Shown here: positions 3,689 through 63,931 of the stretch, piece after piece
Position numbering within the stretch: position 1 is the first letter of the stretch
Layout of the letters: every line of letters begins with the position of its first letter
Source: an uncultured archaeon
GTDB taxonomy: Archaea; Asgardarchaeota; Lokiarchaeia; Sigyniarchaeales; SOKP01
DNA: 64,000 nt
Direction: 5' to 3'
NCBI GenBank assembly: GCA_964447495.1
Contig: CAYUTF010000002.1
Location: forward strand, 37,288-101,287
The notes under the pieces: generated by a model
Database searches by the model: none
What the model was told of the DNA's origin: nothing
What the model saw: only the letters and a program-made list of their open reading frames with translations
Made by a program: the position numbers and the translations under genes

Positions 3689-4423
3689 ATGAGCTCAGAA
3701 CCAAATTTTAAAGATTTAGAAAACGATATTACAGAAATTCTCGAAAAAGAGATGAAAGAAAATGCGGGGATTCTTGGAATAACAATTTCTTCTCATGGAG
3801 GTACACACTTAGCTAGTAAATTTAAAAAAGATATCGCTATGAAAAGAACTGAGATTTCAGCAGCAAGTAGTAGTTTAGTATTTTTATCTTCAAAAATGTT
3901 ACAAGATGCATTAAATCAGAAAATTTCCTATAATTTGATTACTGGCAGTAAACGCATTATCCTATCAATCCTGACCGAAAATATAGCAATGATCTCATAT
4001 TTAAATCGAGAAATCGCTGAACTTGAAGGATTGGATACATATATCAACACTTTGAAAAAATTTTCCATGAAACTTTCCGCAATAATTGCAACATCAGATC
4101 TAATTAAAGAAGAGATTTTTGTTGCTATAAAGAGAGCAATTCCAAACGCTCTAGTAATAGCGATAATGACTAAAGATGGACTCCCCATTAAAATTCAATC
4201 AACGATGCCAGAACCGATACTTTCCGCCATGACATCCGCAATATATAATCTATCAAGTGTTTTATTAGAAGGTGGTTTGGAATTCTCAATAATTGGGGGT
4301 GAAAATGGATCTATCATTATCCATGAACTCGACAAAAATCGTATTATAGCAATTGCTGTACCTGAGGCGAATGAAAAAAAACTAGGAAGCTATATTGCTA
4401 AAATAAAAACTATAATCGAATAA
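3689..4423 (+). CDS. Tandem roadblock/LC7 domain protein
   Basis: Two ~120-aa units, GILGITISSHGGTHLAS..AASSSL and NALVIAIMTKDGLPI..SAMTSAI, typical of roadblock domains. Confidence 0.75.
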   Translation: MSSEPNFKDLENDITEILEKEMKENAGILGITISSHGGTHLASKFKKDIAMKRTEISAASSSLVFLSSKMLQDALNQKISYNLITGSKRIILSILTENIAMISYLNREIAELEGLDTYINTLKKFSMKLSAIIATSDLIKEEIFVAIKRAIPNALVIAIMTKDGLPIKIQSTMPEPILSAMTSAIYNLSSVLLEGGLEFSIIGGENGSIIIHELDKNRIIAIAVPEANEKKLGSYIAKIKTIIE

Positions 4424-5722: not shown

Positions 5723-7962
5723 TTAAAGAATCTTTTTTAACTCTAAAATTAGATTTTTGGGATTGACTCTGTCAAATTGATAAATTTCTGCTTTTCCGAA
5801 ATCTTTAAAATTCTCCTTTATCTTATTAGCAGCAAAAGTATTTACACCTAATCCTTGAGTGGCATAACTCTTTTTTGGTTCTAACACTACAAGATGAACC
5901 CCTTTTTTAGATAAAGCCTTTGTTAATTCTTTTAATTCATTGATAATCACATTATAATCACTTTGTACTTGGGCAATTAAATCAGGATATTTTACGGAAA
6001 TGTTTGCACCACAATCAGAACAAATAAAAATTACGGGGATTATATTTCTATTCTTTAATTTTTCTGCATTAATTAATTTAAGAGATTTCTTTAATGCTGC
6101 AGCCATTGGTGTATATGATTTTCCTTCAATATTTTTTACTTTATTGGCAGCATTCTTGAAATAAACCGTTGGTTTTTGAAGAACAACTGCATCTTTTCCT
6201 CGAAAAATTATCAGACTTATTTTGTCCTTCTTTCGATAACCTTCTTTTTGTAAAGATAAAATTACATCTGTCATTTGCTTTATTACATAGTACATCGAAG
6301 CAGAGCTGTCTAATACAAAAAATAAAACCAATGGTGCACGATATTCGTATATTTTGTCCATTAAATCATACTTATTGAATTTAATGGGAAAATCAATATC
6401 AGTTTGATTATATATTGTATTTTTCAAATAATTTCTGATAGTTGCATCTAATGCGATACTTTTGGGGTTATTAATTGGAGTTCGATATGATACGTACCTT
6501 CCTTTTTGTGAGGAAGAAATTTTGATTCTTCTTCCGATTCCTCTTCCACCATAGTTAGAAACTTTCCTTTCTTTTCGAATATTATCCAAAATCGAAGTCA
6601 TTTTTTTTTCCATTTTATAGATTAATGGGAGAGCATCGAAATCATAATCTAAAAAATCAAACAACTCCTCATTAAAGGGAATATCCTTTACTTTCCATCC
6701 TCCAGCCGGTGAAGGACTTCTTTTTTTATTATCATGATATTTTGGTGCCGGTAATTTCTGTTCTTTAGTTTCTGGTACATCAACCTTTTTTGGATCTATT
6801 GATTGCCGTTTAAATTCTTTCTGAGGGGCATCGTCATATTTCAGAGGACCTTCTGTGTCTTTATTCGGTTTATAGGTATTAGTATCTTCATATGCTTTCT
6901 GTATTTTTCCATATACCTCAACAATTTTAGCTTTTATCTCTTCCGGAGTCATCTCATAGTGAAGGGATTGAATACGATGTTCAAAAACTAAATCCATAGC
7001 TACATTCAAATCATCCTCAGCAACCATCTTTCTCCCGTTAAAAGCCGCATGAGCACGGGCACATCTGATAAAGGTAATATCTGCTCTTTGAGAAAAAATA
7101 CCTAATTCATTAACAAGCCTTGATACAAACTCATACACAGTAGAAGGAATTTGAACTTCTTTCATAATTTCACGAGCATTTTTTATTTTTTTCCTTAGCA
7201 TTTCCTGTTCTTCTTCATATAATTTATGAAATTCTTTTGGATTATCATCAAATTCTATAACTCGTCTTGAAATTTCTGCTCGTAATTTCGGATCACGAGG
7301 TGCTTTGATTTTAACTTCCAAACCTAGTCTGTCAGCTATCTGTGGGCGGAGTTCCCCCTTTCCGAATCCTAATTCGCTGTGAATATAGGATCTTCGGGGT
7401 TCATACTCCCGACCAAGATAAATCGCGAGGGATGAGATACAGAGATTCCTTCTCGTTCTATTATGTTAACACCTGATGCCGCTGAATCCAATAAAACATC
7501 TACGATGTGATCTTGTAATAGATTTATCTCATCTACGTAAAGAATTCCTCTGTGAGCTTTGGCAAGCAATCCAGGATGAAGACTGCGTATACCTTCTGTA
7601 AGTACTTTATCAATAGACAAAGATCCGCAGACCATATCTTCCGTAACTCCTAAAGGTAAGTCAATTATGCGCATGCTACGCCTTGCCCTTTCCATTGTTC
7701 CATCCTTAAGTTTAACACGACATTCATCACATAATTCATCAATTTCTGCGTTTGGATCACACGAAAACGTACAATCTTTCACCACTTCTATTTCAGGCAT
7801 CATTTCTGCCAAGCTTCTAACAGCCGTAGATTTTCCTGTTCCTTGTTGCCCAGTGAGTAATACTCCAGCAATTTGAGGGTCTATAACATTAAGAATTAGA
7901 CCCATTTTCATTATGTCTTGACCGAGTATTGCTGTAAATGGGAAACTATTCCTTTTTACCAT
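5723..7962 (-). CDS. Mg/Co-chelatase ChlD/ChlI-like AAA+ ATPase with C-terminal vWA domain; two exons (7962-7392, 7359-5723), 735 aa when spliced
   Basis: Walker A GQQGTGKS, Walker B LYVDEINLL, and vWA MIDAS DSSAS..T..SD. The two track ORFs join in frame (571+1637=2208 nt) and give MNPEEGELRPQIADRLGL when 7360-7391 is removed. Confidence 0.85.
7360..7391 (-). other. Putative 32-nt BHB-type mRNA intron (phase 1)
   Basis: AUCCUAUAUUCACAGCGAAUUAGGAUUCGGAA. Central helix CCGA/UCGG, bulges AG^A and AA^A, intron stems UCCU/AGGA and AUUC/GAAU. Contains an in-frame UAG. Confidence 0.8.
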
Positions 7963-9326: not shown

Positions 9327-10277
9327 TTAGAATTTTTTAGAAATTTCCATTAATTTTGTGTCTAATTTGGTTACTTCTTCATCCCATTCGGATAAAATAG
9401 CCTCCACTTGGGGAATAATCTCTGTTCTTTCTTTATATTCAAGATAATCCATGAATTCTTTGATATTGGCAATTTTTATATAGGTTTCTGCTACAAACTT
9501 TCTAATTTCATGAACTTGATTATTTAATACCTCTGGGACTCTGTGAGATTCGCCTTTTCGAACTAATGTTGTCAAATATTCTTCAGTACCAAGTAATAAA
9601 GCTTTAAATTTAGTCAATTTATCTTGTATATATTTCTCGTATGTTTCAAAGAGATTGTCCTTAGGGAAGTAATTTGTCACATCAATTATGAATTTATGAG
9701 TTTGATTTACCAGTTGCTCCATACTTTCGTATCCTTCGATGCGGTAATCTACAGTATGATAAGATGCTTCAATTCCTCGAGATGTATCATCTAAGCTGAA
9801 TATTTTAAAGCCTGGATCATTTTTAAGAGGTTTTTCTGGATCTCCTTTCTTATCAGGCATTTCTACTTGACGAATTAACCTTTCAGGGTTAAAAACGAGA
9901 GTGAAATACAAAGGATTGGCCGTTTGATGAAAAGCAAGATGTCTAATATCAATATGACTTAACATCACTTTAAATCCGGGATGTGTATGCCACGCTCCAA
10001 CTGTGTATAAGCCCCTTGAAAATGCTTCATCATCAATTAAAGTATATGTAATGTTATCTTCTTCTGACCATTCATATTTATCTATAACAGCATCTTTATC
10101 CAATTTTTCATGCATAATAGGATAAGATTCTTTTATAATGATATCCTCTTCTTTTTTCTCACCAATAAAAACACCATTTACTTCTAACCACACATCTTTT
10201 GAGATTTTTTGATTGGCAAATCGTACAGCTGCGGCCACAATCGTTAGATAAACTTTTTTTGGTATAATTACCGTCAT
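9327..10277 (-). CDS. JAB1/MPN+ (JAMM) metalloprotease-domain protein
   Basis: LEVNGVFIG (catalytic Glu) and GAWHTHPGFKVMLSHID (H-x-H..S..D). Confidence 0.85.
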   Translation of the reverse strand: MTVIIPKKVYLTIVAAAVRFANQKISKDVWLEVNGVFIGEKKEEDIIIKESYPIMHEKLDKDAVIDKYEWSEEDNITYTLIDDEAFSRGLYTVGAWHTHPGFKVMLSHIDIRHLAFHQTANPLYFTLVFNPERLIRQVEMPDKKGDPEKPLKNDPGFKIFSLDDTSRGIEASYHTVDYRIEGYESMEQLVNQTHKFIIDVTNYFPKDNLFETYEKYIQDKLTKFKALLLGTEEYLTTLVRKGESHRVPEVLNNQVHEIRKFVAETYIKIANIKEFMDYLEYKERTEIIPQVEAILSEWDEEVTKLDTKLMEISKKF

Positions 10278-10453
10278 ATTTACATTGTCTAAATACTAAT
10301 ATTATTGATCAAGTTATACTAATCCATATATTTATGTTTTTTTTTGGGAGAAATATAAAATTATTTAAATTCAAAATTTACCATTATATTATTACTTAAA
10401 GTCATATTGAAACTGATTCCAATTAAATAATATTGATTAAATTGTGATTAAAA

Positions 10454-11074
10454 GTGAGCGATAAAGGGTTTGAACCATTAAGCAGTCAGTTAGGGATAGC
10501 AGGAACGTCTTATAGAATTCAATTGGGTCTTATAAATGGACGTTGGGCTTCGCGTTTATTAAAAGGGAATGATGTTATTGATTCTTATGTTTATAAGGAC
10601 GAGGATGTGCAAGGCGAATATCCGAATCAAAATATCATAGTAGGATGGGTCTTAAGAACCGTAGCAATTCCTAATATCAACCCCCATCAAGTAATGAAAA
10701 CAACTCAAGCATTAGTGAAGCAAGCTATAGAAAAGAAAGAACAAAAGAAAGTTATGGCCCCAATATCAGAAACCAAGGATGTTGAATTGGAAAAGGTACC
10801 CGATAGTCAATTGAAGAGATCACAACCCATGGGATGGGTGAAAGATGAAGGTGTAAAATCAGTACAAGAGCTTGAGGACGAAAAACGTGAAGCTTTTAGA
10901 GAAAGGATGAAATACAAACATGTAGAAGAAGAAGCCAAAAGAGTTTCTGCTGTAAAAACTACTCGAGAATTACCTTCAATCCCTAAAATGGGAGGAGTAA
11001 CTTCAAAAACTTGTCCAAGTTGTGGCAAAGATTTAGATTGGAAATTTTGCCCCTATTGTGGGGAAAAATTATAA
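10454..11074 (+). CDS. Zinc-ribbon domain protein
   Basis: C-terminal CPSCG..WKFCPYCG double CxxC; charged linker. Confidence 0.7.
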   Translation: MSDKGFEPLSSQLGIAGTSYRIQLGLINGRWASRLLKGNDVIDSYVYKDEDVQGEYPNQNIIVGWVLRTVAIPNINPHQVMKTTQALVKQAIEKKEQKKVMAPISETKDVELEKVPDSQLKRSQPMGWVKDEGVKSVQELEDEKREAFRERMKYKHVEEEAKRVSAVKTTRELPSIPKMGGVTSKTCPSCGKDLDWKFCPYCGEKL

Positions 11075-11479
11075 ATCTTATCACTATAACTTGATATCTA
11101 CGTTTCTATATAACAGAAAATTAGTTAAATATTAAATTTTATACTCTTTTCTTACAAAAGAAATTTATCCTTGTTTGCCAAATAGATATTGTAGTTTCTG
11201 GTTAAGAGCTTTAACAAGTTAGATTCCATAATTGTAATAAGCATTATATCTGTAAGGTTCCAATTAATAGACATCAAAGTAGATTCTAAAAAATTATTAT
11301 AACTGAATTATTAGTAACAATAATTCAGTTCAATATTATCTTTAATTAATATAAACTTAAAACCAAGATGATATAATTATCATAGAAGGATTTTTGATTA
11401 GTGTATCAAATTAAAATGCATATTATAAATGAGTTAAATTAATATATCTTAAAAATTAACTATATCTAAACTTATCAAA

Positions 11480-12985
11480 TTGAGTGATTTAATAATGGGA
11501 AAGTTTGTTGATGAAAGCACTGTGATAGTTAAGCCATTAGCATATTATAAGATGCTGGTACATGTACTTCGATTTGGTTCAAAAGCAAGGGATTTTAGGC
11601 AGTTTAGCGAAGTAATTGGAATGTTGGTGGGACATTTAGAAGGAGATGGAAAAATCAAAAATGTTATCGTGGAAGATGTAGTACCAATTTCACATGGGGG
11701 TTCTATAGAAGTCAAATTTACTGAAGAACAGTTAGGAGCATTCGGTGAGATTGATCTTCAGATATATAATGAGCATGGTATGAAAAATTGGTTCACAGTA
11801 GGTTGGTATCATTCGCATCCGGGCTTAAATATCTTTTTCTCATCAACTGATGTTTTTAATCAACTATTTTGGCAAGATAAAAATCCTAGTGGAGTAGGAC
11901 TGGTATTCGATCATACATATTTAGAGCGTGAAGGAGACATGGGTTTTCGAGCGTTTAGGTTGGATGATCCTTCGAAAAGTCTTAATTCTGAGTATCATGA
12001 AGTTAAAGCTATTGTAGAACCTCCAAAGGATAAGTCATTCTATTCTAATGTAATCACTTTAATTAATAATATTCAATCAAATCAGCCACCTTTATATGAG
12101 CTAAATGAAACTACAGATCTATTTAGTGAAGTATTTATCCCAGATCAAGAACAATTAGAGATTCGAAAACCTGAATTACATCTTCAGGAATTACTATCTT
12201 CATTAAAATCCGGTATAACTTCCTTTTTAGATTTATCAATGATCCCTCTAATTACGTCTCTTAATGAATGGAGTCAAAGGATTACCAACAAAACATATTA
12301 TAATAACACACAGATGAGAAAAGATTTGGTAAAGTTAAAACAAAATTTAAGTGATAGTCTAAATGATATGCAGAAAACTTTTAATTACACTTTGCAAAAT
12401 AATTTAAGCAAATTAGATGACTACATCTCAGATACATTTGATGAATTTGAAGAGGAACAAGAAAATATTCGGAAAATTTATAGTAATTTTAAAAATCAAA
12501 TCAATTTAGAAAAAGACACTTTATTTAATGAAAAATTAAAGTTTTCTGTTGAACAGATTTCTTTCATGTTTGATAATTGTCAGAAATTAATCTCACAAAT
12601 TGATGAGACTAATTCAAATTGTATCCAAATTTTAGAAAAAAATACTCAAATGATAGAAAGTTTATCGAAAATAATAATGCCCTCAGAAAAAAGAATTACT
12701 GGTAAATTGGATGAAAATAAGCAAAAAACTATAGAAAATTTCAAGAAAAAAATAATAAATCTCGACAATAATATAAGTAATTTAGATAAAGAAGCAAAGA
12801 AAATTATGTCGAACCTCAAGGCAGCTATTTTAGTACTTGAAGGCTCAAAAGACCCTATTTTCAATAAGATTGAAAAATTAGAAAGTGAAAAGAAGAATTT
12901 ACATACAACAATTAAGGACTTAAAAACCGATAAACAAGAACTACTGTCTCAAATTAAAGATTTAAAGAAAGGAGGAGGGAAATAA
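11480..12985 (+). CDS. JAB1/MPN+ domain protein with long C-terminal coiled coil
   Basis: SEVIGMLVG and GWYHSHPGLNIFFSSTD; heptad-rich C-terminal half. Confidence 0.85.
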   Translation: MSDLIMGKFVDESTVIVKPLAYYKMLVHVLRFGSKARDFRQFSEVIGMLVGHLEGDGKIKNVIVEDVVPISHGGSIEVKFTEEQLGAFGEIDLQIYNEHGMKNWFTVGWYHSHPGLNIFFSSTDVFNQLFWQDKNPSGVGLVFDHTYLEREGDMGFRAFRLDDPSKSLNSEYHEVKAIVEPPKDKSFYSNVITLINNIQSNQPPLYELNETTDLFSEVFIPDQEQLEIRKPELHLQELLSSLKSGITSFLDLSMIPLITSLNEWSQRITNKTYYNNTQMRKDLVKLKQNLSDSLNDMQKTFNYTLQNNLSKLDDYISDTFDEFEEEQENIRKIYSNFKNQINLEKDTLFNEKLKFSVEQISFMFDNCQKLISQIDETNSNCIQILEKNTQMIESLSKIIMPSEKRITGKLDENKQKTIENFKKKIINLDNNISNLDKEAKKIMSNLKAAILVLEGSKDPIFNKIEKLESEKKNLHTTIKDLKTDKQELLSQIKDLKKGGGK

Positions 12986-14389
12986 ATGCCTAAAGATTCT
13001 GCTAATAACTTAGATACTGGCTATGAAAATAAAGAAGTAGAAGTCTCAAAAGAGGGAAGAATTACAATTAAATATGATTGTTTTAGAAAGATGATATCTC
13101 ATATTCTTAGATTTGCTAATGAATCTGAAGAAATAAGCCAGCAAGCACTTGGTATTTGTGTTGGCGAATATTTAAGTGAAGATAAGAGTTTCATTATCAA
13201 CGATGCTATTCCAATTACGCATGGTGATATTGTAGAACTGGGATTTTCCCAAGAAATTCATGATACTATAGAAACAATTAAATCGCAATATTCAGAAACA
13301 AACAATAAAATAATAGGGTGGTATCACTCCCATTTAGGATATGGGTTATACTTTTCTAATTCGGATAAAGCAAATAATCAATACTTCCAAAATGACGATA
13401 ATCCTTATGGATTTGGGATTGTGATTGAACAAACATTAATATCAGAGGATCAAAATTTTGGAACTGAAATTTTTAGGTTAAAAGATTTTATTAAAGGCTC
13501 AGAAAGCGATTATGTTAAAGTTCAATTTGAAATTGAATCACCAAATACTTTAAAATACTTTAAATGGGTAAAGGAACTAATTGAATCTGCTCAAAAAAAA
13601 AATACTGCAATCATTCATGAAGTTGATGAGCTCGTGAAACCTTCTCCTGAAGTACTTCAAGAGATCCCCACATCTCCACAAGATGAGCCTGAATCCACAG
13701 AAAAAGAAGGGTTTTCAATACTATATGGAGTAAAAGATGGTATAGAAAAATTTAAGGATGCTTTTCTTAGTGTTTATGAACAAGAACTGAATATATGGAT
13801 GAATGATGTTTCTGAAGATGTATTAAAAGGCTCTGAATATATACGGAGTTCTATAAATAATATTAAAGAAACATTAGCATCAGGTTTAGTGGATGTTCAA
13901 CGCATCTTTAATAGAAGTTTTACCGATATTTCAAATCTTTTTATGAAAAATATAAAAACAAGTGTTGACACACGTTTAACCAATCAAATTGAGCTTAAAA
14001 ATGAAATCGAATCAAACTTTGAAGAGCAATTAAGTTATCTTTTTGAGAATTTAGAAAAAGAAATACGTGATATCACGAATTTAATTGAAGAAAAAATAAC
14101 AACTATTAAAAATGAATTAGATAAGATCACCCAAAATAATAACGTTATTGAACAGTCATTAAATCAGAATAACGAACTTTTGAATAAAGTTTATCAAGAG
14201 TCCGATAAATTATCAAATACAATTATTCAACATATCGAAAATTCGACTAAAGCATTTGAATTAAAATTATTTAATGAAATCGAAGATTTCTCATCGAAAA
14301 TGAATCCAAATAAAGAAACTTATCGTGAAATCGAAGATTTAATTGAAAGACTTCAAAAAGTAATATCAAGTTTAAGACAAGTAAAATAA
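12986..14389 (+). CDS. JAB1/MPN domain protein with coiled coil, catalytic Glu replaced by Gln
   Basis: QQALGICVG at the E-V-x-G position and GWYHSHLGYGLYFSNSD. Starts directly after the previous stop (TAAATG). Confidence 0.8.
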   Translation: MPKDSANNLDTGYENKEVEVSKEGRITIKYDCFRKMISHILRFANESEEISQQALGICVGEYLSEDKSFIINDAIPITHGDIVELGFSQEIHDTIETIKSQYSETNNKIIGWYHSHLGYGLYFSNSDKANNQYFQNDDNPYGFGIVIEQTLISEDQNFGTEIFRLKDFIKGSESDYVKVQFEIESPNTLKYFKWVKELIESAQKKNTAIIHEVDELVKPSPEVLQEIPTSPQDEPESTEKEGFSILYGVKDGIEKFKDAFLSVYEQELNIWMNDVSEDVLKGSEYIRSSINNIKETLASGLVDVQRIFNRSFTDISNLFMKNIKTSVDTRLTNQIELKNEIESNFEEQLSYLFENLEKEIRDITNLIEEKITTIKNELDKITQNNNVIEQSLNQNNELLNKVYQESDKLSNTIIQHIENSTKAFELKLFNEIEDFSSKMNPNKETYREIEDLIERLQKVISSLRQVK

Positions 14390-26561: not shown

Positions 26562-28014
26562 TCACTCTATGAAAATATTTCTAAATCTATTTATAACTTT
26601 TTCAATTATGTTTTTTAACTTTTTAGGACCAATCTTAATTATAATAAAAAGTGTAATGATTAGGATAACAATAGATAAAGTAATCATTATTCCAATAAGA
26701 AACTTGAAGATTAGAGTATAATATATCGATGCTAGTGTTATCTGATAGAGTGTTGTTATAAAACCTATTTTGAAAAACTGTTTAAAACTGATAGGACGCT
26801 TATTTTGTTCAGCTATTTGGACTACTAATATGTTATCCCCAAGCGGTGTAAGATTATCTCCCCAATTAGCTCCAATAGCTAGACAAAAGAAAAATTGATG
26901 TCGCATAGCTGATGGGTAGTTATTTGAAATGGTATTTATGACAGGGATTAACAATTTAGTTATAGGAATATTATCAATAGCACTGCTTAAAAATGAAGAT
27001 ATCCAGAGAATAATAATGAGTTGAGAAAATATATCTCCTCCAGAGAGATTTGACATTATTTCTCCCAGGAATTGAACAACTCCCAGGATATCAAGAGCTC
27101 CAGCAATAATAAATATCCCCAAAAGATAGAGGATTAACTCAAAATCTATTTTAGAAATAATTTGTTTTGCTTCAAGTCTACTAATGATTATTAAAAATAA
27201 TGCCATAATTAACGCAATTATATCAGTAGGTAATATTGATGTAGGAATAATAATAAACAAGATAAATACAAGGATTAACGTAAATAGTGATTTTAATAAC
27301 AACATTTTATTAGGTACAAAATTCCATACATTAAATTCTCTTAAAATTTTAATACCTTCTTGGGGGATGTCTAGGGATTTCCTAAATATAAAAATAAAGA
27401 AGACAAGTGTTAAACAAAAATTATTAAAGAAATCGTTCCAACATTCAAAAAGAAATCAATAAATTGAATATCAGCATAAGTACTAATTAATATATTAGGT
27501 ATAGATGAAATCGTGAAAAAAGTTCCACCAATATTGACTAAAATTGCTTGAGTTAGTATATAAGCAGAAGGATTTACATTTAAAATACGAGAAACTGTTA
27601 TTGTCAGAGGGATAAGTATAATAACAGTCAGAATGTTGTTTAATATCGCAGAAATAAATATCGTAATTAAACAAAAAATTGACATTAGATAAAGTGGCTT
27701 TCCTTTTGATAGTTTAATTAAGTTTAAAGCGATATATTGAAAAAGCCCTGCTTCATTAGAAATTGCCACAATAAGCATCATGCTTATAATTAAAATAAGG
27801 GAGTGAAGATTTACAAAACCTTCACTTTCAGTTCCAAATAATAGTTCAATGATTACATTAAAGTTCATTCCTTCTAAGAACGTTCATACAAAATAAACAA
27901 TAACTGCTCCTGATAAAGCTGCTATTGCTCTATTTAATTTTTCTGTGATTATAAGAATTATTACTCCAATGAAACATCCTAAAGCTATAATTATACTAAG
28001 AATTTTATAATCAC
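26562..28014 (-). pseudogene. SLC13/ArsB/NhaD-family permease, disrupted
   Basis: Homology runs from ~28014 (DYKILSIIIAL..EKLNRAIAAL). There is no in-frame start, an in-frame TGA at 27884-27886, and a 1-nt frameshift in a T-run near 27410. SAILNN and SSAIDNIP motifs are present. Confidence 0.7.
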
Positions 28015-31427: not shown

Positions 31428-32726
31428 ATGAATCTAATTCTAATAATTTTTGTCTTTATTATATTTGGAATAATTTTGGTGAGTTACTCATCCAAAAATT
31501 TAGATTTTGTCGCTATTTCATTATTTGGTTGTTTTACGGCAGCATTTGTTACCGGTGTTGTTAATAATTTAACTTTTTGGGATTTTATTGATTATATTGA
31601 ATTTGATGCCATTATCATTATTTTAAGTATGAGTATTATCACTAAAATCGCGCAAGATTCAAACATATTAGAATATTTAGCAGTTAAGCTTTTCAAAATC
31701 TCAAAAGGAAACCGAAGAACCTTTCTTTATTTAATATGCATTATAACAACTATTTTAGCAGCTATTATTAATGATGTTATTGTTGTTTTGATTTTAGCTC
31801 CTGTTGTAATACGATTATGTCGATTTTTAAAAATTAGATCGGGTACCTATTTATTGGGAATGACTATTTGCATAAATATTGGTTCGATCATCACCCCTTT
31901 TTCTAGTGGTGAAAATATTATTATATCGACAGCATTTTCCTTAGATACTGCATATTTTATTACAAATTATTGGATTTTTTCCTTTTTCCTCTTATTTATA
32001 ACTATTTACCTTATAGACAGGTTTATCTTAAAAAAGGAACCAGAAATAGAAGAACAACAGAAGAATTTTGTCCTAGAACTAGTTGATACAGATGTTATGA
32101 TTTCAAATCGTAAAATGTTTTATGTTAACAGTATTGGAATCATAATTACAATTGCTCTTTTTGCAGTTTTACCTTTATTATATTTAACAGCTGCATTTTC
32201 TGCTTTTACCTTAGTATTGATTAATACGAAATTTACTAAAAAAAAGACTATCGATATATTAAAAGATGTAGAGTGGGAAATTATATTTTTCTTTATCGCT
32301 TTATACGTGGTTATTGGGTGTTTATTGGAAGCGGGGTTCAAAGATCTTTTTATAAATATTCCCTTCGAAGTTTTAAGCCCTTTTATGGTTAGTTTTATTA
32401 TCTTATTACTTGTAAGCTTAATCTCTGGTTTTGTAGCAAACACTCCAACAGCATTAATTTTTATTCCAATCATATCATTGTTGATTGATACATTTCATTT
32501 TCCCTCTATTCCCTTATTTTTCGCTTTTATAATTAGTATTAATATTGGAGGTAATTTGATACCTCAAGGAGCCGCATGTGATATGATGACGCTGAAAATT
32601 GCTCAGAACAATGGTGTAGAAAATTTAAATTTTAAAAGATTATTAAAAGTAGGAGCAACATTCGCGGTCATTCATATTGGTTTATCTATTGGATATTTAT
32701 TTTTATTATCGTTATTCACACTCTAA
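31428..32726 (+). CDS. SLC13/ArsB/NhaD-family permease
   Basis: AAIINDV, INIGSIITPFSSGENII, SGFVANTP and GGNLIPQGAACD. Confidence 0.85.
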   Translation: MNLILIIFVFIIFGIILVSYSSKNLDFVAISLFGCFTAAFVTGVVNNLTFWDFIDYIEFDAIIIILSMSIITKIAQDSNILEYLAVKLFKISKGNRRTFLYLICIITTILAAIINDVIVVLILAPVVIRLCRFLKIRSGTYLLGMTICINIGSIITPFSSGENIIISTAFSLDTAYFITNYWIFSFFLLFITIYLIDRFILKKEPEIEEQQKNFVLELVDTDVMISNRKMFYVNSIGIIITIALFAVLPLLYLTAAFSAFTLVLINTKFTKKKTIDILKDVEWEIIFFFIALYVVIGCLLEAGFKDLFINIPFEVLSPFMVSFIILLLVSLISGFVANTPTALIFIPIISLLIDTFHFPSIPLFFAFIISINIGGNLIPQGAACDMMTLKIAQNNGVENLNFKRLLKVGATFAVIHIGLSIGYLFLLSLFTL

Positions 32727-43661: not shown

Positions 43662-44234
43662 ATGGTTATAATGCCTAATTCAAACAATACAAAAATGAAT
43701 GATGGGGAATTACCACGCTCTGGATCGGTTATGTTTAATTTTCATTTTCAAAATGAAGAGGATAAGAAAAAGGTTTTAAAGCGATGGCAAAAAATAAATA
43801 AATATTTAATGATTCCATTGTATAGAGTGAAATTGCTACCGTTATTAGGATTTGGGAAAATTTTTTTGATTTTAAAGACAAAAGGAAGGAAAACGGGAAA
43901 AATAAGAAGAACTCCATTAGAATATAGACGATACAACGATACTATTACCATTTTTGCTTCAAGAGGGGAAGATACAATGTGGGTAAAAAATCTGCGTTCA
44001 CATCCAGAGGATGTGTCAGTAATGTATGGATTCCATCATTTTAAACCTCAAATAGAATTTATTGAAGATAAAAATCAAAAACTTACAATTATGAAATGGT
44101 ATGTAAAGAATTTTGGAAAAGCAGCAAAAATGCTTTTTGGATGGGATCCAAAAAATGATGATCCTGAAACAATTGATTTTACAAAATTAATAAATTTGAT
44201 ATCTATTATCTTACTTCATAAAATTAGTAAATGA
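43662..44234 (+). CDS. Deazaflavin (F420)-dependent nitroreductase-family oxidoreductase
   Basis: LILKTKGRKTGKIRRTPLEY..ASRG..WVKNLRSHP. Confidence 0.8.
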   Translation: MVIMPNSNNTKMNDGELPRSGSVMFNFHFQNEEDKKKVLKRWQKINKYLMIPLYRVKLLPLLGFGKIFLILKTKGRKTGKIRRTPLEYRRYNDTITIFASRGEDTMWVKNLRSHPEDVSVMYGFHHFKPQIEFIEDKNQKLTIMKWYVKNFGKAAKMLFGWDPKNDDPETIDFTKLINLISIILLHKISK

Positions 44235-44255: not shown

Positions 44256-46043
44256 TTATCCTTCTTTTTCAATATATTCTAAATTTTCTAAAAGAGATCT
44301 TAACTTTAAGGCATTTGCACCTCCAGATACCTGTATATTAACTATTGAATCCTCATCCGTACCAGTAACATTGGTTTCGATTAATACCTTTTCTGCTCGT
44401 ATCTGTTTTGTTTGCCGTTTACTTAATGCTTCTTTTAAGGGTTGATCCAAATTTGGAAATTCAGCAGCAATTTCTACCCAGACTTCTTTTTGATGAGAAT
44501 ATTTAAACGTAAAATCTGAGACTGTTTGTTTATAAAGTTCTTGATCGCACCAATTAATTAGATAGGCTCTATTAGGAAATTCAAGATCATCAATTAAATT
44601 ATTCCTAATTTCAGATAAACTTTTAATATCTCCATTCTTCACAGCGATATCTATTTTTCTAGCTAATTTTGAATACTTTTTTGCTTTTACTGATTTTATA
44701 AAAGAGATCAGATCAAATTTAACTATTAAATCGTTCATTGCATAATTATCGAGCATTTTTAAATCATTTACTTCTGGAGTTCCATCACGAAAACGAGTAG
44801 CTATTTCATAACAGGGCTTTCGATTAATATATCGTTTCTTAATTTCTTCTAAAACATGTTTAGTAAACTCATATTTATTACCCCAGAATGGTGCTTTCTC
44901 CAATTCTCGTGATGTATATTTCACGCGATGGGATATTATGTAAGGTGCAATTGTATTTACAATATTAATATCAACTATATTCAAGTTTAATAACCATGCT
45001 AAAGCTTTAGAATATCTAAGAAGATCTTTTGCTACTCTTACACTTAGAATGGAATCAATTTTATTGCAAACGCTTTGTTCGGTGTTGAAATGACATCCAG
45101 AACACAATCCAGAACTGGGTTTGATATTTTCAGAATTCCCCTTATCTACGCGAGCACATAAAGTATATTCTCTTATTATTGCATGAATATAATTATTCAC
45201 TTCTGTTTCGAATTTCATCTTGTTTACATGGTACCAAATTTCCATGAGACCATCAATATGTAAGATTTTAGGTACTTCAATCAATTCATCATATCCAGAA
45301 TATTTTTCGTCCTTTCCTGTAAGTATTAATGATAAATCATTACTTGTTGGCATTGAGATAGGAACTGATATTCCAAAACGATCTAGAAACGGTTGAGACA
45401 GTTTTCGAATAATTTGGAAATCAAATTAAATTTCGAATGTCCCAACATCTTGTGGATTTATAGTAGCATAAAGCGTGTATTTTTCTATAGTATTAATGGC
45501 ATCGTAATATTTTACTTTTCCTTCAGCTAATAAGGATAAAAGAATATCTTGGGCATATGGTGTCAATCTGTTGACCTCATCGATAATTTTCCAAAATCCA
45601 GTTACAAATTGCCTCCAAACGACTACTTCTTCCCCGTCTTTCATTAACTTTCCTAATTTTAAAGTCCCTGTAAGTTTTTCTTCTGTGAGTTGCGGTTAGC
45701 CGTTAAACGCTGAGAGCGATTAACTATGACCCCTTACAATGGAACTTTCAATTTGATCCAATGTCATACCAGTGAACATCCTACCTAATAGTTTAACTAA
45801 AGTAGTTTTACCCCCACCATGTCCTCCAACTAATAACATAGCAGAGTTTGGTACTAGCGCATTTAAAACACACATAGATAAAATTTCAGGCAATGTATTT
45901 GTTATAAGCTTCTTCTTATCCTCATTAAAATATTTAACTTCCAAATTTTTAGAATGAACAAATAATTGATTTGCTTGGATGAGGTTAATAGTGTTCCATA
46001 CTTTTTTTCTTAATGATTCTTCTTCTCCTAATATATTTGACAT
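44256..46043 (-). CDS. MoxR-like AAA+ ATPase; three exons (46043-45726, 45695-45432, 45401-44256), 575 aa when spliced
   Basis: Walker A GGHGGGKT and Walker B IIDEVNR. The three track ORFs share one frame. Removing two 30-nt inserts (318+264+1146=1728 nt) gives RGHPQLTEEKL and NPQDVGTFELSQPFLDRFG. Confidence 0.85.
45402..45431 (-). other. Putative 30-nt BHB-type mRNA intron (phase 0)
   Basis: AUUUAAUUUGAUUUCCAAAUUAUUCGAAAA. Exon stem GGGACA/UGUCUC, helix UUCG/CGAA, bulges AA^A and AA^C, 7-bp intron stem. Contains an in-frame UAA. Confidence 0.82.
45696..45725 (-). other. Putative 30-nt BHB-type mRNA intron (phase 0)
   Basis: AGUUAAUCGCUCUCAGCGUUUAACGGCUAA. Helix GGUC/GGCU, bulges AU^A and AA^C, stems GUUAA/UUAAC and CGCU/AGCG. 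Contains two in-frame UAA. Confidence 0.82.
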
Positions 46044-46156: not shown

Positions 46157-47749
46157 TTAAAACGTGTATTTTTTCCGTTTCTCGGGTAAAATAATGTTCC
46201 CTGAAAGTCCAAATTCAGTAAAGGTTTCTGCATGCTCAGTATGCACTGGAATGATATTATCGGCTTGAATTGTGGATAACGTAGAAATCAAGTCCTCTAC
46301 ATTAACATGTCCCGAGGAATGGATGGTTTCAGTCTTGATAACACCAAATTTATTCAACCATGCATTTAATTTTTTATCTTGAATAACCATTTCTTCATTA
46401 AATGGATCTGTTGTAGAATTTATGAATAATATAGAATCTTGTTTCTGATCTAAATCAATTAATTCGTTCATCATAAAATAATCAAGATACATTAGGTACT
46501 TATCCGGCTCAGCTTTAACATCTTTATAATTGATATAATTTTCTTCTTTTAAAATGATTCGTTCAAATTTTTTATAATCTTCTGATTCGAATTTACCCCA
46601 TCCTTTCCGTGGTAAATAAATCGATAAAAAGTCATCATTAAATTCAGGTAAATTGTAATCTCTATAAAATTCTTTAATATTTTCCTCCTCCATCTCATCA
46701 AGTTTTTTCTTTAATGATTCAATATACATATGAATTTTTGGAGTTATAGCAATAATACGGTTATTTTTCTTAGCCAAATTATAATATAGTAAGAGTCTAT
46801 CAAGATTTCTGGATGGATAATTGAATAAAATTAAACCATGATAGTTATTAATTAATTCTCCAGAAATCTCTTGGACATCTTTCTCCGATTGAGTATCATC
46901 TTTAAATTTTTCATTCTTAAAATCCTCAACAGAAGGCACACGTGTTCCTTCTGTGATTATTGTTATAGGATTAGACTTTTTAGCATTATTAATAAAAGTT
47001 CTTACCCAATCACTATGTAATCCATGTGTTCTAAAATCTCCGGTATAAATGATACTTCTTCCGTCGTGTTCTATAATATAGGAACATGCTCCTGGAATGG
47101 AATGGTCTACAGGATACTGCGTAATTTTAATCTCTCCATTAGATGTATTAAAGAAATAAGGCTTACTAGAATCCATCAGTTTAATTTTCCTTAAACAATC
47201 GTGTTTCTTATAATCAGTTCTCTTTGCTCTTTTATATTGAATTTCATCATTAGTTTTTTGCTTCTTTTTTGGAACTTGCTTGAATGCCTCATAAAAATGC
47301 AAAATCTCAGGAACTAATGGATCAGAAGAAATTTCATCTAAATAATTAGCAATTGCTTCTGTTATCCAATTCATATATATTGGGGTACTTTTCTTAAGGA
47401 AGCCTAAGAACTTACAATGATCTAAATGTGCGTGAGTTAGAAAACAAGCATCGATTAGATTATCATCAGAGGGCGTTATATTGTATCTTCCTGAACGTAA
47501 TTTTTCTTTAAATGGTAGAATAAAATCATTTCTGTATATTTTATTGATTGGAGGGATAAGTCCTAAATATAAATAGTCAATAACACCATTAAATTTTCGA
47601 GGATTGAGGAAATTTGAAAAATATTGATTCATATCTTTAAAGGATAATCCAAAATCAAAACAGAAGGTTTTATCTCCATTCTTTATAAAGATTTTATTTC
47701 CTCCAATCTCGTTTATACCACCATATATAGAAACTTGCATGAAAAACAA
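46157..47749 (-). CDS. MBL-fold metallohydrolase, RNase J-like
   Basis: GGINEIGGNKI, FDFG, THAHLDH, DHSIPGA, YTGDFR, IHSSGH and IIPVHTE. Confidence 0.82.
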   Translation of the reverse strand: MFFMQVSIYGGINEIGGNKIFIKNGDKTFCFDFGLSFKDMNQYFSNFLNPRKFNGVIDYLYLGLIPPINKIYRNDFILPFKEKLRSGRYNITPSDDNLIDACFLTHAHLDHCKFLGFLKKSTPIYMNWITEAIANYLDEISSDPLVPEILHFYEAFKQVPKKKQKTNDEIQYKRAKRTDYKKHDCLRKIKLMDSSKPYFFNTSNGEIKITQYPVDHSIPGACSYIIEHDGRSIIYTGDFRTHGLHSDWVRTFINNAKKSNPITIITEGTRVPSVEDFKNEKFKDDTQSEKDVQEISGELINNYHGLILFNYPSRNLDRLLLYYNLAKKNNRIIAITPKIHMYIESLKKKLDEMEEENIKEFYRDYNLPEFNDDFLSIYLPRKGWGKFESEDYKKFERIILKEENYINYKDVKAEPDKYLMYLDYFMMNELIDLDQKQDSILFINSTTDPFNEEMVIQDKKLNAWLNKFGVIKTETIHSSGHVNVEDLISTLSTIQADNIIPVHTEHAETFTEFGLSGNIILPEKRKKYTF

Positions 47750-63831: not shown

Positions 63832-63931
63832 GGGGCTGTGGATTAGTGGAAGATCGTTCGCTTGGCATGCGAAAGTTAAGGCACTTTTACCTAACCGTAA
63901 GAGGCCGGGGGTTCAATTCCCCCCAGCTCCA
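63832..63931 (+). tRNA. tRNA-Ala(GGC) with a 28-nt intron at position 43/44; CCA not encoded
   Basis: Acceptor GGGGCUG/CAGCUCC with G3:U70, anticodon arm UUCGC-UUGGCAU-GCGAA, T arm GGGGG-UUCAAUU-CCCCC. The mature form is 72 nt after intron removal. Confidence 0.93.
63874..63901 (+). other. tRNA intron with BHB motif at non-canonical site 43/44
   Basis: AGUUAAGGCACUUUUACCUAACCGUAAG. Helix UGCG/CGUA, bulges AA^A and AG^A, stem GUUA(A)GG/CCUAAC. Confidence 0.88.

Follow-up and report, generated by a model that had tools for sequence, protein, structure and literature searches.

Two putative 30-nt bulge-helix-bulge introns in a MoxR-like AAA+ ATPase gene of Lokiarchaeia

Layout of the MoxR-like locus and its predicted product

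The analyzed stretch, in the following termed the window, comprises 64 kb of contig CAYUTF010000002.1 from an uncultured archaeon of the Lokiarchaeia; it is AT-rich (30% GC) and holds roughly 55 genes. On its minus strand, the coding region of a MoxR-like AAA+ ATPase is interrupted twice. The open reading frame (ORF) beginning at 46043 meets a stop after 107 codons and is followed by two further pieces, the third ending at 44256. All three pieces lie in one frame and are separated by two segments of 30 nucleotides (nt), each with an in-frame TAA. The segment at 45402-45431 is very probably a genuine archaeal bulge-helix-bulge (BHB) intron in the mRNA of this gene, being the second of two 30-nt mini-introns. 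The locus is composed of the following features:

44256-46043, minus strand: MoxR-like AAA+ ATPase gene in the order exon 1, intron 1, exon 2, intron 2, exon 3; predicted spliced product of 575 amino acids (aa)
45726-46043, minus strand: exon 1, codons 1-106, carrying Walker A (GGHGGGKTT) and ending ...IVRGH; ratio of nonsynonymous to synonymous substitution rates (dN/dS) 0.05-0.09 against relatives
45696-45725, minus strand: putative intron 1, 30 nt, AGUUAAUCGCUCUCAGCGUUUAACGGCUAA, relaxed BHB; placed by a homology gap and conserved pairing
45432-45695, minus strand: exon 2, codons 107-194, with PQLTEEKLTG..., Walker B (IIDEVNR) and sensor 1 (ATINP), ending ...GTFE; dN/dS 0.02-0.12
45402-45431, minus strand: putative intron 2, 30 nt, AUUUAAUUUGAUUUCCAAAUUAUUCGAAAA, with an in-frame UAA as its second codon; placed by a homology gap and the BHB fold
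44256-45401, minus strand: exon 3, codons 195-575 plus stop, beginning LSQPFLDRF (Arg-finger segment), its first ATG lying 16 codons in; dN/dS 0.06-0.11

An earlier reading of this DNA (the original prediction) had proposed a 30-nt intron at exactly 45402-45431, and the minus strand indeed reads GGG ACA UUC GAA, then AUUUAAUUUGAUUUCCAAAUUAUUCGAAAA, then CUG UCU CAA at this position. A second 30-nt insert, which the same prediction had placed 264 nt upstream, was recovered at 45696-45725. Excision of both segments yields a 575-aa MoxR-like AAA+ protein, in which the Arg-finger segment is restored within GTFELSQPFLDRF, again as had been proposed. This product is matched by the Pfam families AAA_5 (1.3e-13, residues 69-203) and AAA_3 (8.9e-07), with the AAA_5 alignment running unbroken over both junctions, located at residues 106/107 and 194/195. 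Only after splicing would Walker A, Walker B, sensor 1, and the Arg finger LDRF be found in one polypeptide, and the predicted junction-spanning peptide of the product is DVGTFELSQPFLDR. Gene callers, in turn, cut the locus into proteins of 107, 72, and 365 aa, fragments for which no Pfam match was obtained. Besides the two inserts, the gene carries no second lesion, and its sequence is 100% identical in contigs of three independent samples.

The spliced 575-aa product was searched against 5.8 billion proteins, resulting in a list of 120 homologues. More than 100 of these are uninterrupted Asgard proteins of 574-577 aa aligned at 100% coverage, the best being 85% identical. Their source names (MoxR-like or AAA family ATPase) are accompanied by assignments to Lokiarchaeota, Promethearchaeota, and Thor-, Hod-, and Hermodarchaeota. 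Among the 120 listed homologues, 45 share the junction peptide obtained by removing intron 2, GTFELSQPFLDRF, in identical form; the junction peptide IVRGHPQLTEEKL is identical in nine of them, with a further 95 having IIRGHPQLTEEKL. On nucleotide level, the intron-less relative L001, nested within the intron-2 clade, reads TTTGAA directly followed by TTGTCT, which is exactly the predicted junction. L001 and the great majority of the homologues are without either intron.

Fold and geometry of intron 2

The 56-nt element around intron 2 (45391-45446, minus strand) resolves into the following parts, with h, H, and h' denoting the exonic, central, and intronic helix of the motif:

45438-45446, minus strand: 5' strand of helix h, GUUGGGACA, exonic; pairs with 45392-45400, 94% of cells paired in seven lineages
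45434-45437, minus strand: exonic strand of helix H, UUCG; 96% of cells paired
45431-45433, minus strand: 5' bulge AAA; predicted cut after its second nucleotide, between 45432 and 45431, from the register and the cleavage rule
45408-45430, minus strand: intron hairpin h', UU UAAUUUG / AUUUC loop / CAAAUUA UU; three pairs changed on both sides across lineages
45404-45407, minus strand: intronic strand of helix H, CGAA; pairs with UUCG
45401-45403, minus strand: 3' bulge AAC; predicted cut after its second nucleotide, between 45402 and 45401, from the register and the cleavage rule
45392-45400, minus strand: 3' strand of helix h, UGUCUCAAC, exonic; pairs with GUUGGGACA

The exon-exon stem GGGACA/UGUCUC of the original prediction is present and in fact extends to 9 base pairs (bp), GUUGGGACA/UGUCUCAAC. 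Likewise recovered were the exon-intron helix H of 4 bp (UUCG/CGAA), which is flanked by two 3-nt bulges on opposite strands including the anticipated 3' bulge AAC, and the 7-bp intron stem UAAUUUG/CAAAUUA, which follows two U-U oppositions. The element folds with -19.9 kcal/mol (z = -5.9), a value reached by none of 200 shuffled sequences. Among 127,850 positions evaluated at 30-nt spacing, two combine a helix h of at least 6 bp with a helix h' of at least 5 bp, the intron-2 site being one of those two. The cut of the archaeal splicing endonuclease follows the second nucleotide of a bulge, where the central nucleotide attacks the adjacent phosphate with its 2'-OH (PMC12397907). The cuts predicted by this register coincide with the boundaries required by homology, joining GAA to CUG and giving GTFELSQPFLDRF.

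Recurrence, covariation, and selection

For comparison, a set of relatives (designated by L numbers) was assembled by scanning reference genomes, searching metagenome contigs for the pattern, and using the 365-aa C-terminal fragment as a protein query, the contigs encoding the matches then being retrieved. The metagenome pattern scan contributed two real matches as well as three chance matches in unrelated genes (L020-L022). L002, L019, and L023, sharing ~80% protein identity with the window, have intron 2 at an unchanged codon position, as do the more distant L027, L028, L029, L030, and L031 (67-70% identity). The length of intron 2 is exactly 30 nt in each of the nine carriers, including the window, and a stop always lies within its first three codons. 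Intron 1 occupies the same site in L028, L030, L031, L032, L033, L034, and L035, with a length of 30 nt save for L028 (31 nt). Both introns are thus carried by the window, L028, L030, and L031, and intron 1 alone by L032-L035. Fragment proteins sharing these start points (364-365, 376-385, and 452 aa) indicate carriers beyond the compared set.

Pairing within intron 2 is conserved in register. In the seven in-register sequences, 91.6% of cells hold standard pairs, compared with 26-53% upon shifting the 3' partners by 1-3 columns, and the covariation score of these seven sequences was reached by none of 500 shuffles. Four pairs are changed on both sides, with U-A to C-G and A-U to G-C exchanges in h'; the third pair of H is C-G in four lineages and U-A in three, representing a compensatory change. 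The exonic segments of helix h (9 nt) are able to form 7-9 of nine pairs in carriers vs 4-7 of nine in six intron-less genes. Albeit from a small sample, this excess in carriers suggests selection on synonymous sites.

Pairwise comparison of the intron-bearing genes yielded proportions of nonsynonymous differences (pN) of 0.04-0.23 and of synonymous differences (pS) of 0.57-0.84, the latter being saturated, while dN/dS ranged from 0.02 to 0.12 per exon in all three exons. Divergence amounted to 0.13-0.37 for intron 1 and to 0.20 for intron 2 (window vs L002), compared with 0.44-0.58 at third codon positions. The introns evolving more slowly than third codon positions, in combination with the low dN/dS, argues that the segments behind the stops are translated in frame and that constraint acts on the inserts, too. 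Carriers of either or both introns are scattered beside intron-less sisters in a neighbour-joining tree computed for the exon-3 region, and intron copies of distant carriers are still alignable. Because of this pattern, the simplest reading would be that the introns are old and have been precisely lost many times.

The relaxed motif of intron 1

At intron 1, helix H is formed by GGUC/GGCU and flanked by a 5' bulge AUA and a 3' bulge AAC, each with its predicted cut after the second nucleotide; h' consists of GUUAA/UUAAC plus CGCU/AGCG. The exon-exon helix comprises only ~1 bp. Intron 1 would therefore be classified as a relaxed motif of the kind accepted by broad-specificity endonucleases, not as a full BHB. 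Its pairing is conserved nonetheless: 89.3% of cells are paired vs 13-47% in slid controls, with double changes at four pairs. All cells of H (100%) are paired, its third pair being U-G, C-G, or U-A, and the four pairs altered on both sides lie in h', including a G-C to A-U exchange next to the bulge. The copies share the form AGUUAAU.CG...UUAACGGCUAA in all carriers.

Other interrupted genes and neighboring features

Two further features of the window are candidates for the same processing pathway:

7360-7391, minus strand: putative third mRNA intron, 32 nt, relaxed BHB, in a ChlI/ChlD-like gene of AAA+-lid-VWA architecture (5723-7962)
63832-63931, plus strand: tRNA-Ala(GGC) interrupted at a non-canonical position, within the variable region, by an intron of ~28 nt; Rfam tRNA match of 56 bits with a 29-nt insertion

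The ChlI/ChlD-like gene is represented by two ORFs in different frames, 7369-7962 (AAA_5/Mg_chelatase, 197 aa) and 5723-7321 (AAA_lid_2 plus VWA_2, 532 aa). Excising 7360-7391 leads to a 735-aa ChlI/ChlD-like protein, to which over 100 Asgard homologues without interruption (734-735 aa) align at 100% coverage with up to 87% identity. The restored junction LVGSMNPEEGELRPQIADR is identical in 37 of the listed homologues. The boundaries are marked by helix H (CCGA/UCGG), the bulges AGA and AAA (predicted cuts after AG and AA), and h' (UCCUA/UAGGA), with a fold z of -2.4, and the split recurs in an independent assembly. The predicted splice-junction sequences of the three introns are ACATTCGAA joined to CTGTCTCAA, GGGGTCAT joined to CCGCAACTC, and CCCGAAG joined to AGGGGGAAC. 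All three putative mini-introns fall into regions of conserved AAA+ motifs in the two AAA+ genes, with the Arg finger following a few codons later in two cases.

The tRNA-Ala was missed by ARAGORN in its unspliced form and found after removal of about 24-31 nt, trimming not fixing the exact boundaries. A strict BHB search within the intron at 63832-63931 did not find the canonical motif. The non-canonical position of this intron argues for a use of the endonuclease pathway at such sites in this genome, and in turn provides an indirect argument for an endonuclease accepting motifs outside tRNA.

Another pair of adjacent ORFs on the minus strand, 26562-27305 and 27410-27868, both belonging to the CitMHS/ArsB transporter family and having an intact paralogue at 31428-32726, was considered as an intron-split gene and rejected. 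The break consists of a 1-nt frame change near a AATTTTTG run (~27395), and there is no excisable segment; it would represent a frameshift, a pseudogene, or a sequence error.

Directly upstream of the MoxR-like gene, 46157-47749 on the minus strand encodes a 530-aa protein of the metallo-beta-lactamase (MBL) fold (Lactamase_B_2). Another copy of the locus has a truncated MBL-fold product with a weak match to RMMBL, the RNA-metabolising MBL family. The neighbor is possibly an RNA-processing nuclease located beside an intron-bearing gene. On the downstream side, most of the relatives L028-L034 carry a gene for a protein of ~563-578 aa next to the MoxR-like gene, with faint or weak VWA_2 matches in L028 and L029, which would fit the usual pairing of MoxR with VWA proteins. 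In the window lineage, the next gene is a convergent ORF resembling F420H2-dependent quinone reductases (43662-44234), so that a VWA-type partner would be located elsewhere or have been lost. Further genes of the window include three with JAB/MPN domains clustered at 9327-14389, one on the minus strand (9327-10277) and two on the plus strand (11480-12985 and 12986-14389), and one for a Roadblock/LC7-domain protein at 3689-4423. Eukaryote-signature-type families like these are typical of Asgard genomes.

Weighing of the intron reading and its alternatives

A number of observations weigh against 45402-45431 being a spliced BHB intron. The minimum-energy fold of the window's own sequence has a 6-bp central helix (UUCGAA/UUCGAA) with a bulge AUU, and the canonical conformer with the 4-bp H is less stable than this fold by 3.1 kcal/mol; in the relatives, the extra H pairs are impossible, leaving only the 4-bp register open. 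Hairpin h' starts with its U-U oppositions right beside the 5' bulge, and the minimum-energy folds of several relatives lack the AU-rich helix H. One H mismatch each was noted in L028 and L030, and the register is shifted by 1 nt in L027 and L028, the BHB being kept despite this shift and excision still giving GTFELS. The covariation sample is small, consisting of 7-9 related sequences. One carrier, L029 (ENA k141_308237), has a frame-shifting 1-nt deletion (AAATA-TACGAT) in exon 2, about 20 codons before intron 2, and may represent a pseudogene of that lineage or an assembly error. None of six predicted spliced proteins had an exact match in a collection of 15 billion proteins. A Pfam survey of the 64-kb window revealed neither an EndA nor an RtcB gene, their presence in the genome being taken from the Asgard literature. 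Finally, a blind BHB scan of both window strands for introns of 14-120 nt returned hundreds of weak matches and was not significant.

The same scan defines how the motif can be used. Markov-randomised sequences match or exceed the BHB helix totals of the window; as they score equally high in a blind search, only the test at the homology-fixed site is meaningful. A scan combining the BHB motif with ORF joining was discarded as uninformative, flagging nearly all intergenic gaps between genes on the same strand. The second-best BHB-like geometry of the window, 44 nt long with 8 bp in h and 7 bp in h', is found at 46817-46860 on the plus strand, opposite to the MBL-fold gene and within an ORF of that other strand that is uninterrupted. 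It was taken as a chance hairpin, and it illustrates that motif scans alone are unreliable in this window.

Four alternative explanations were weighed against splicing. The locus could be a decaying pseudogene, its two 30-nt inserts being random insertions that bring stop codons. In-frame stops in both inserts, the calling of three fragments of 107, 72, and 365 aa without Pfam match, and the extra 1-nt deletion in the relative L029 would all be in line with decay. However, dN/dS does not exceed 0.12 in any of the three exons, including those behind the stops, and the same inserts are found at the same codons in lineages differing by ~50% at third codon positions. Moreover, insert length and pairing are preserved by compensatory changes, and the window gene is otherwise free of lesions. 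Recent copying of one dead allele is excluded by the ~20-50% exon divergence among carriers, and we consider decay extremely unlikely. Split genes exist in some archaea, and it is thus conceivable that the three ORFs are translated separately, the pieces assembling into the ATPase without RNA splicing. Each downstream piece does offer an internal ATG (M124, M211), used by the gene callers. Starting there would leave the first 17 codons of exon 2 and the first 16 of exon 3 untranslated, even though these encode PQLTEEKLTG and the Arg-finger segment LSQPFLDRF, which are among the most conserved parts of the family. The exon starts themselves have no start codon, exon 3 opening with CUG in the window, and the breaks lie within the AAA+ core fold. 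Separate translation would furthermore leave the BHB fold, the constant length of 30 nt, and the compensatory changes unexplained, and appears very unlikely overall.

Translational recoding would require the ribosome either to bypass the 30 nt, as in gene 60 of phage T4, or to read through the stop with a 10-residue insertion. The insert superficially resembles the features of the T4 bypass, its length being a multiple of three with a stop near the 5' end and a hairpin. A bypass depends on a landing codon that matches the take-off codon. In the window, the insert has a single GAA towards its 3' end, which would land out of frame; in L002, L019, and L023, GAA is absent from this region. Read-through, on the other hand, is at odds with an insert conserved as base pairs and not as amino acids, and with intron-less homologues working without the 10 residues. 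For both versions, the 31-nt intron 1 of L028 and the 32-nt insert of the ChlI/ChlD-like gene are frame-incompatible and therefore make translation through them impossible, leaving recoding with hardly any probability. A similarly negligible chance is assigned to an artefact of sequencing or assembly or to the landing of a small mobile repeat, resembling a miniature inverted-repeat transposable element (MITE), in the gene. Such an origin would be suggested by the short, AT-rich, and palindromic nature of the insert and by the two TTCGAA copies that flank its core in the window. Against an artefact stands the identical sequence in three independent samples, and against either origin stand eight other lineages with diverged copies at this site. 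The flanking TTCGAA corresponds to the palindromic helix H and is absent in relatives (TTTGAA...CCAAAA); as a target-site duplication it was rejected, being missing there and leaving a +2 frameshift. A covariance model of intron 2 found no further copy in the window plus 29 loci (238 kb in total), and for this reason intron 2 is not considered a dispersed repeat.

Returning to splicing, the proposal of an mRNA with two BHB introns is supported by the occurrence of the insert at the same codon in eight other lineages, compensatory changes, purifying selection, intron-less junctions, and the three samples. It requires amendment in one respect: intron 1 is relaxed and does not form a full BHB.

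Proposed mechanism and implications

We infer splicing of the MoxR-like mRNA from sequence and have not observed it. According to the proposed mechanism, EndA would cut after the second nucleotide of each intron-2 bulge, and an RtcB-type ligase would join GAA to CUG, releasing the 30-nt intron, probably as a circle. The joining would restore ...NPQDVGTFE followed by LSQPFLDRF..., connecting sensor 1 with the Arg-finger segment. In this scheme, the 575-aa ATPase would be encoded only by the doubly spliced mRNA, the unspliced mRNA presenting a stop two codons into the intron. A stop at the 5' end is kept in every intron copy, which suggests that unspliced messages may be rendered harmless. Any regulatory role of splicing would be speculation.

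If the interpretation is correct, interrupted mRNAs would not be a crenarchaeal curiosity. The 107-, 72-, and 365-aa "hypothetical proteins" of the gene callers would distort Asgard proteomes as well as presence/absence matrices. The 56-nt element would offer a ready minimal substrate for studying the specificity of the Asgard EndA, and the locus provides a testable case of intron gain and loss within an entire gene family. A further question arising from it is how splicing competes with coupled transcription and translation.

In a broader reading, ancient BHB mini-introns of ~30 nt might be common in protein-coding genes of Lokiarchaeia, some genes having several of them and each genome tens to hundreds. 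This is hinted at by three introns in two of the roughly 55 window genes, all being conserved or exactly repaired by excision, and we put it forward as a tentative and rather doubtful extension. Should it hold, mRNA splicing by tRNA endonuclease and ligase would be routine in the closest known archaeal relatives of eukaryotes, and Asgard annotations would systematically mis-call such genes as fragments.

Comparison with known splicing systems

The BHB intron in the cbf5 pre-mRNA of Crenarchaeota was reportedly described by Watanabe in 2002 and Yoshinari in 2006. Archaeal BHB introns have been described in tRNA, rRNA, one coding sequence (cbf5, Crenarchaeota), and one 5' untranslated region (UTR; Haloferax HVO_1309) (PMC2738675, PMC7714728, PMC12397907). 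Reviews up to 2025 still cite cbf5 as the only case within a coding sequence (PMC7714728, PMC12397907), its intron being single and often of a relaxed motif (PMC2738675). No report on BHB introns in Asgard protein-coding genes was found in the literature searched, which is no proof of their absence elsewhere. The expectation that two introns in one coding sequence go beyond the single-intron cbf5 case agrees with these sources (PMC7714728, PMC2738675, PMC12397907). With respect to the enzymes, the Asgard EndA is reported as an (alpha-beta)2 enzyme with an L1 loop giving broad specificity (PMC5829648), and Asgard archaea contain very many non-canonical tRNA introns (PMC11291895).

The closest counterpart is the pre-mRNA of the pseudouridine synthase cbf5 in Crenarchaeota (Yokobori 2009, PMC2738675). 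Both genes have a short coding-sequence intron, often with a relaxed BHB, whose removal restores a conserved frame; both show a patchy distribution explained by gain and loss, in hosts with a hetero-oligomeric endonuclease of broad specificity. They differ in the host gene, here an AAA+ ATPase family (together with the ChlI/ChlD-like gene) from Asgard archaea of the Lokiarchaeia instead of Crenarchaeota, and in the number of introns per coding sequence, two compared with one, intron 2 being fixed at 30 nt in nine carriers. Splicing of cbf5 was demonstrated experimentally, whereas we infer that of the MoxR-like mRNA.

HVO_1309 of Haloferax volcanii (PMC7714728) likewise provides an mRNA substrate of the archaeal splicing endonuclease beyond tRNA and rRNA. 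In contrast to the MoxR-like gene, its intron resides in the 5' UTR, where no reading frame is broken, and the host is a euryarchaeon with an enzyme of strict specificity. The tRNA introns of Asgard and TACK archaea (PMC11291895; PMC5829648) share the motif, the presumed enzymes, and a size of tens of nt with the MoxR-like introns; Asgard genomes are unusually rich in them, and one is located in the window (63832-63931). Unlike these, the MoxR-like introns reside in an mRNA, the exonic halves of the motif also encode conserved residues, and splicing would decide on the production of the full-length protein.

In eukaryotes, HAC1/XBP1 mRNA is cleaved by Ire1 at twin 7-nt loops and ligated by RtcB or Trl1 as part of a regulated stress response. 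This resembles the proposed MoxR-like case in being a non-spliceosomal mRNA splicing by protein enzymes at stem-loop sites, with joining by a tRNA ligase and an altered product. The differences comprise the nuclease (Ire1, not EndA) and the recognized structure (twin 7-nt loops, not a BHB), and regulation is demonstrated for HAC1/XBP1 only. Taken together, by every sequence-level test of membership the MoxR-like intron would work like the cbf5 intron. New aspects would be the host genes, being the second and third of their kind, the phylum (Asgard), and the arrangement of two introns per reading frame.

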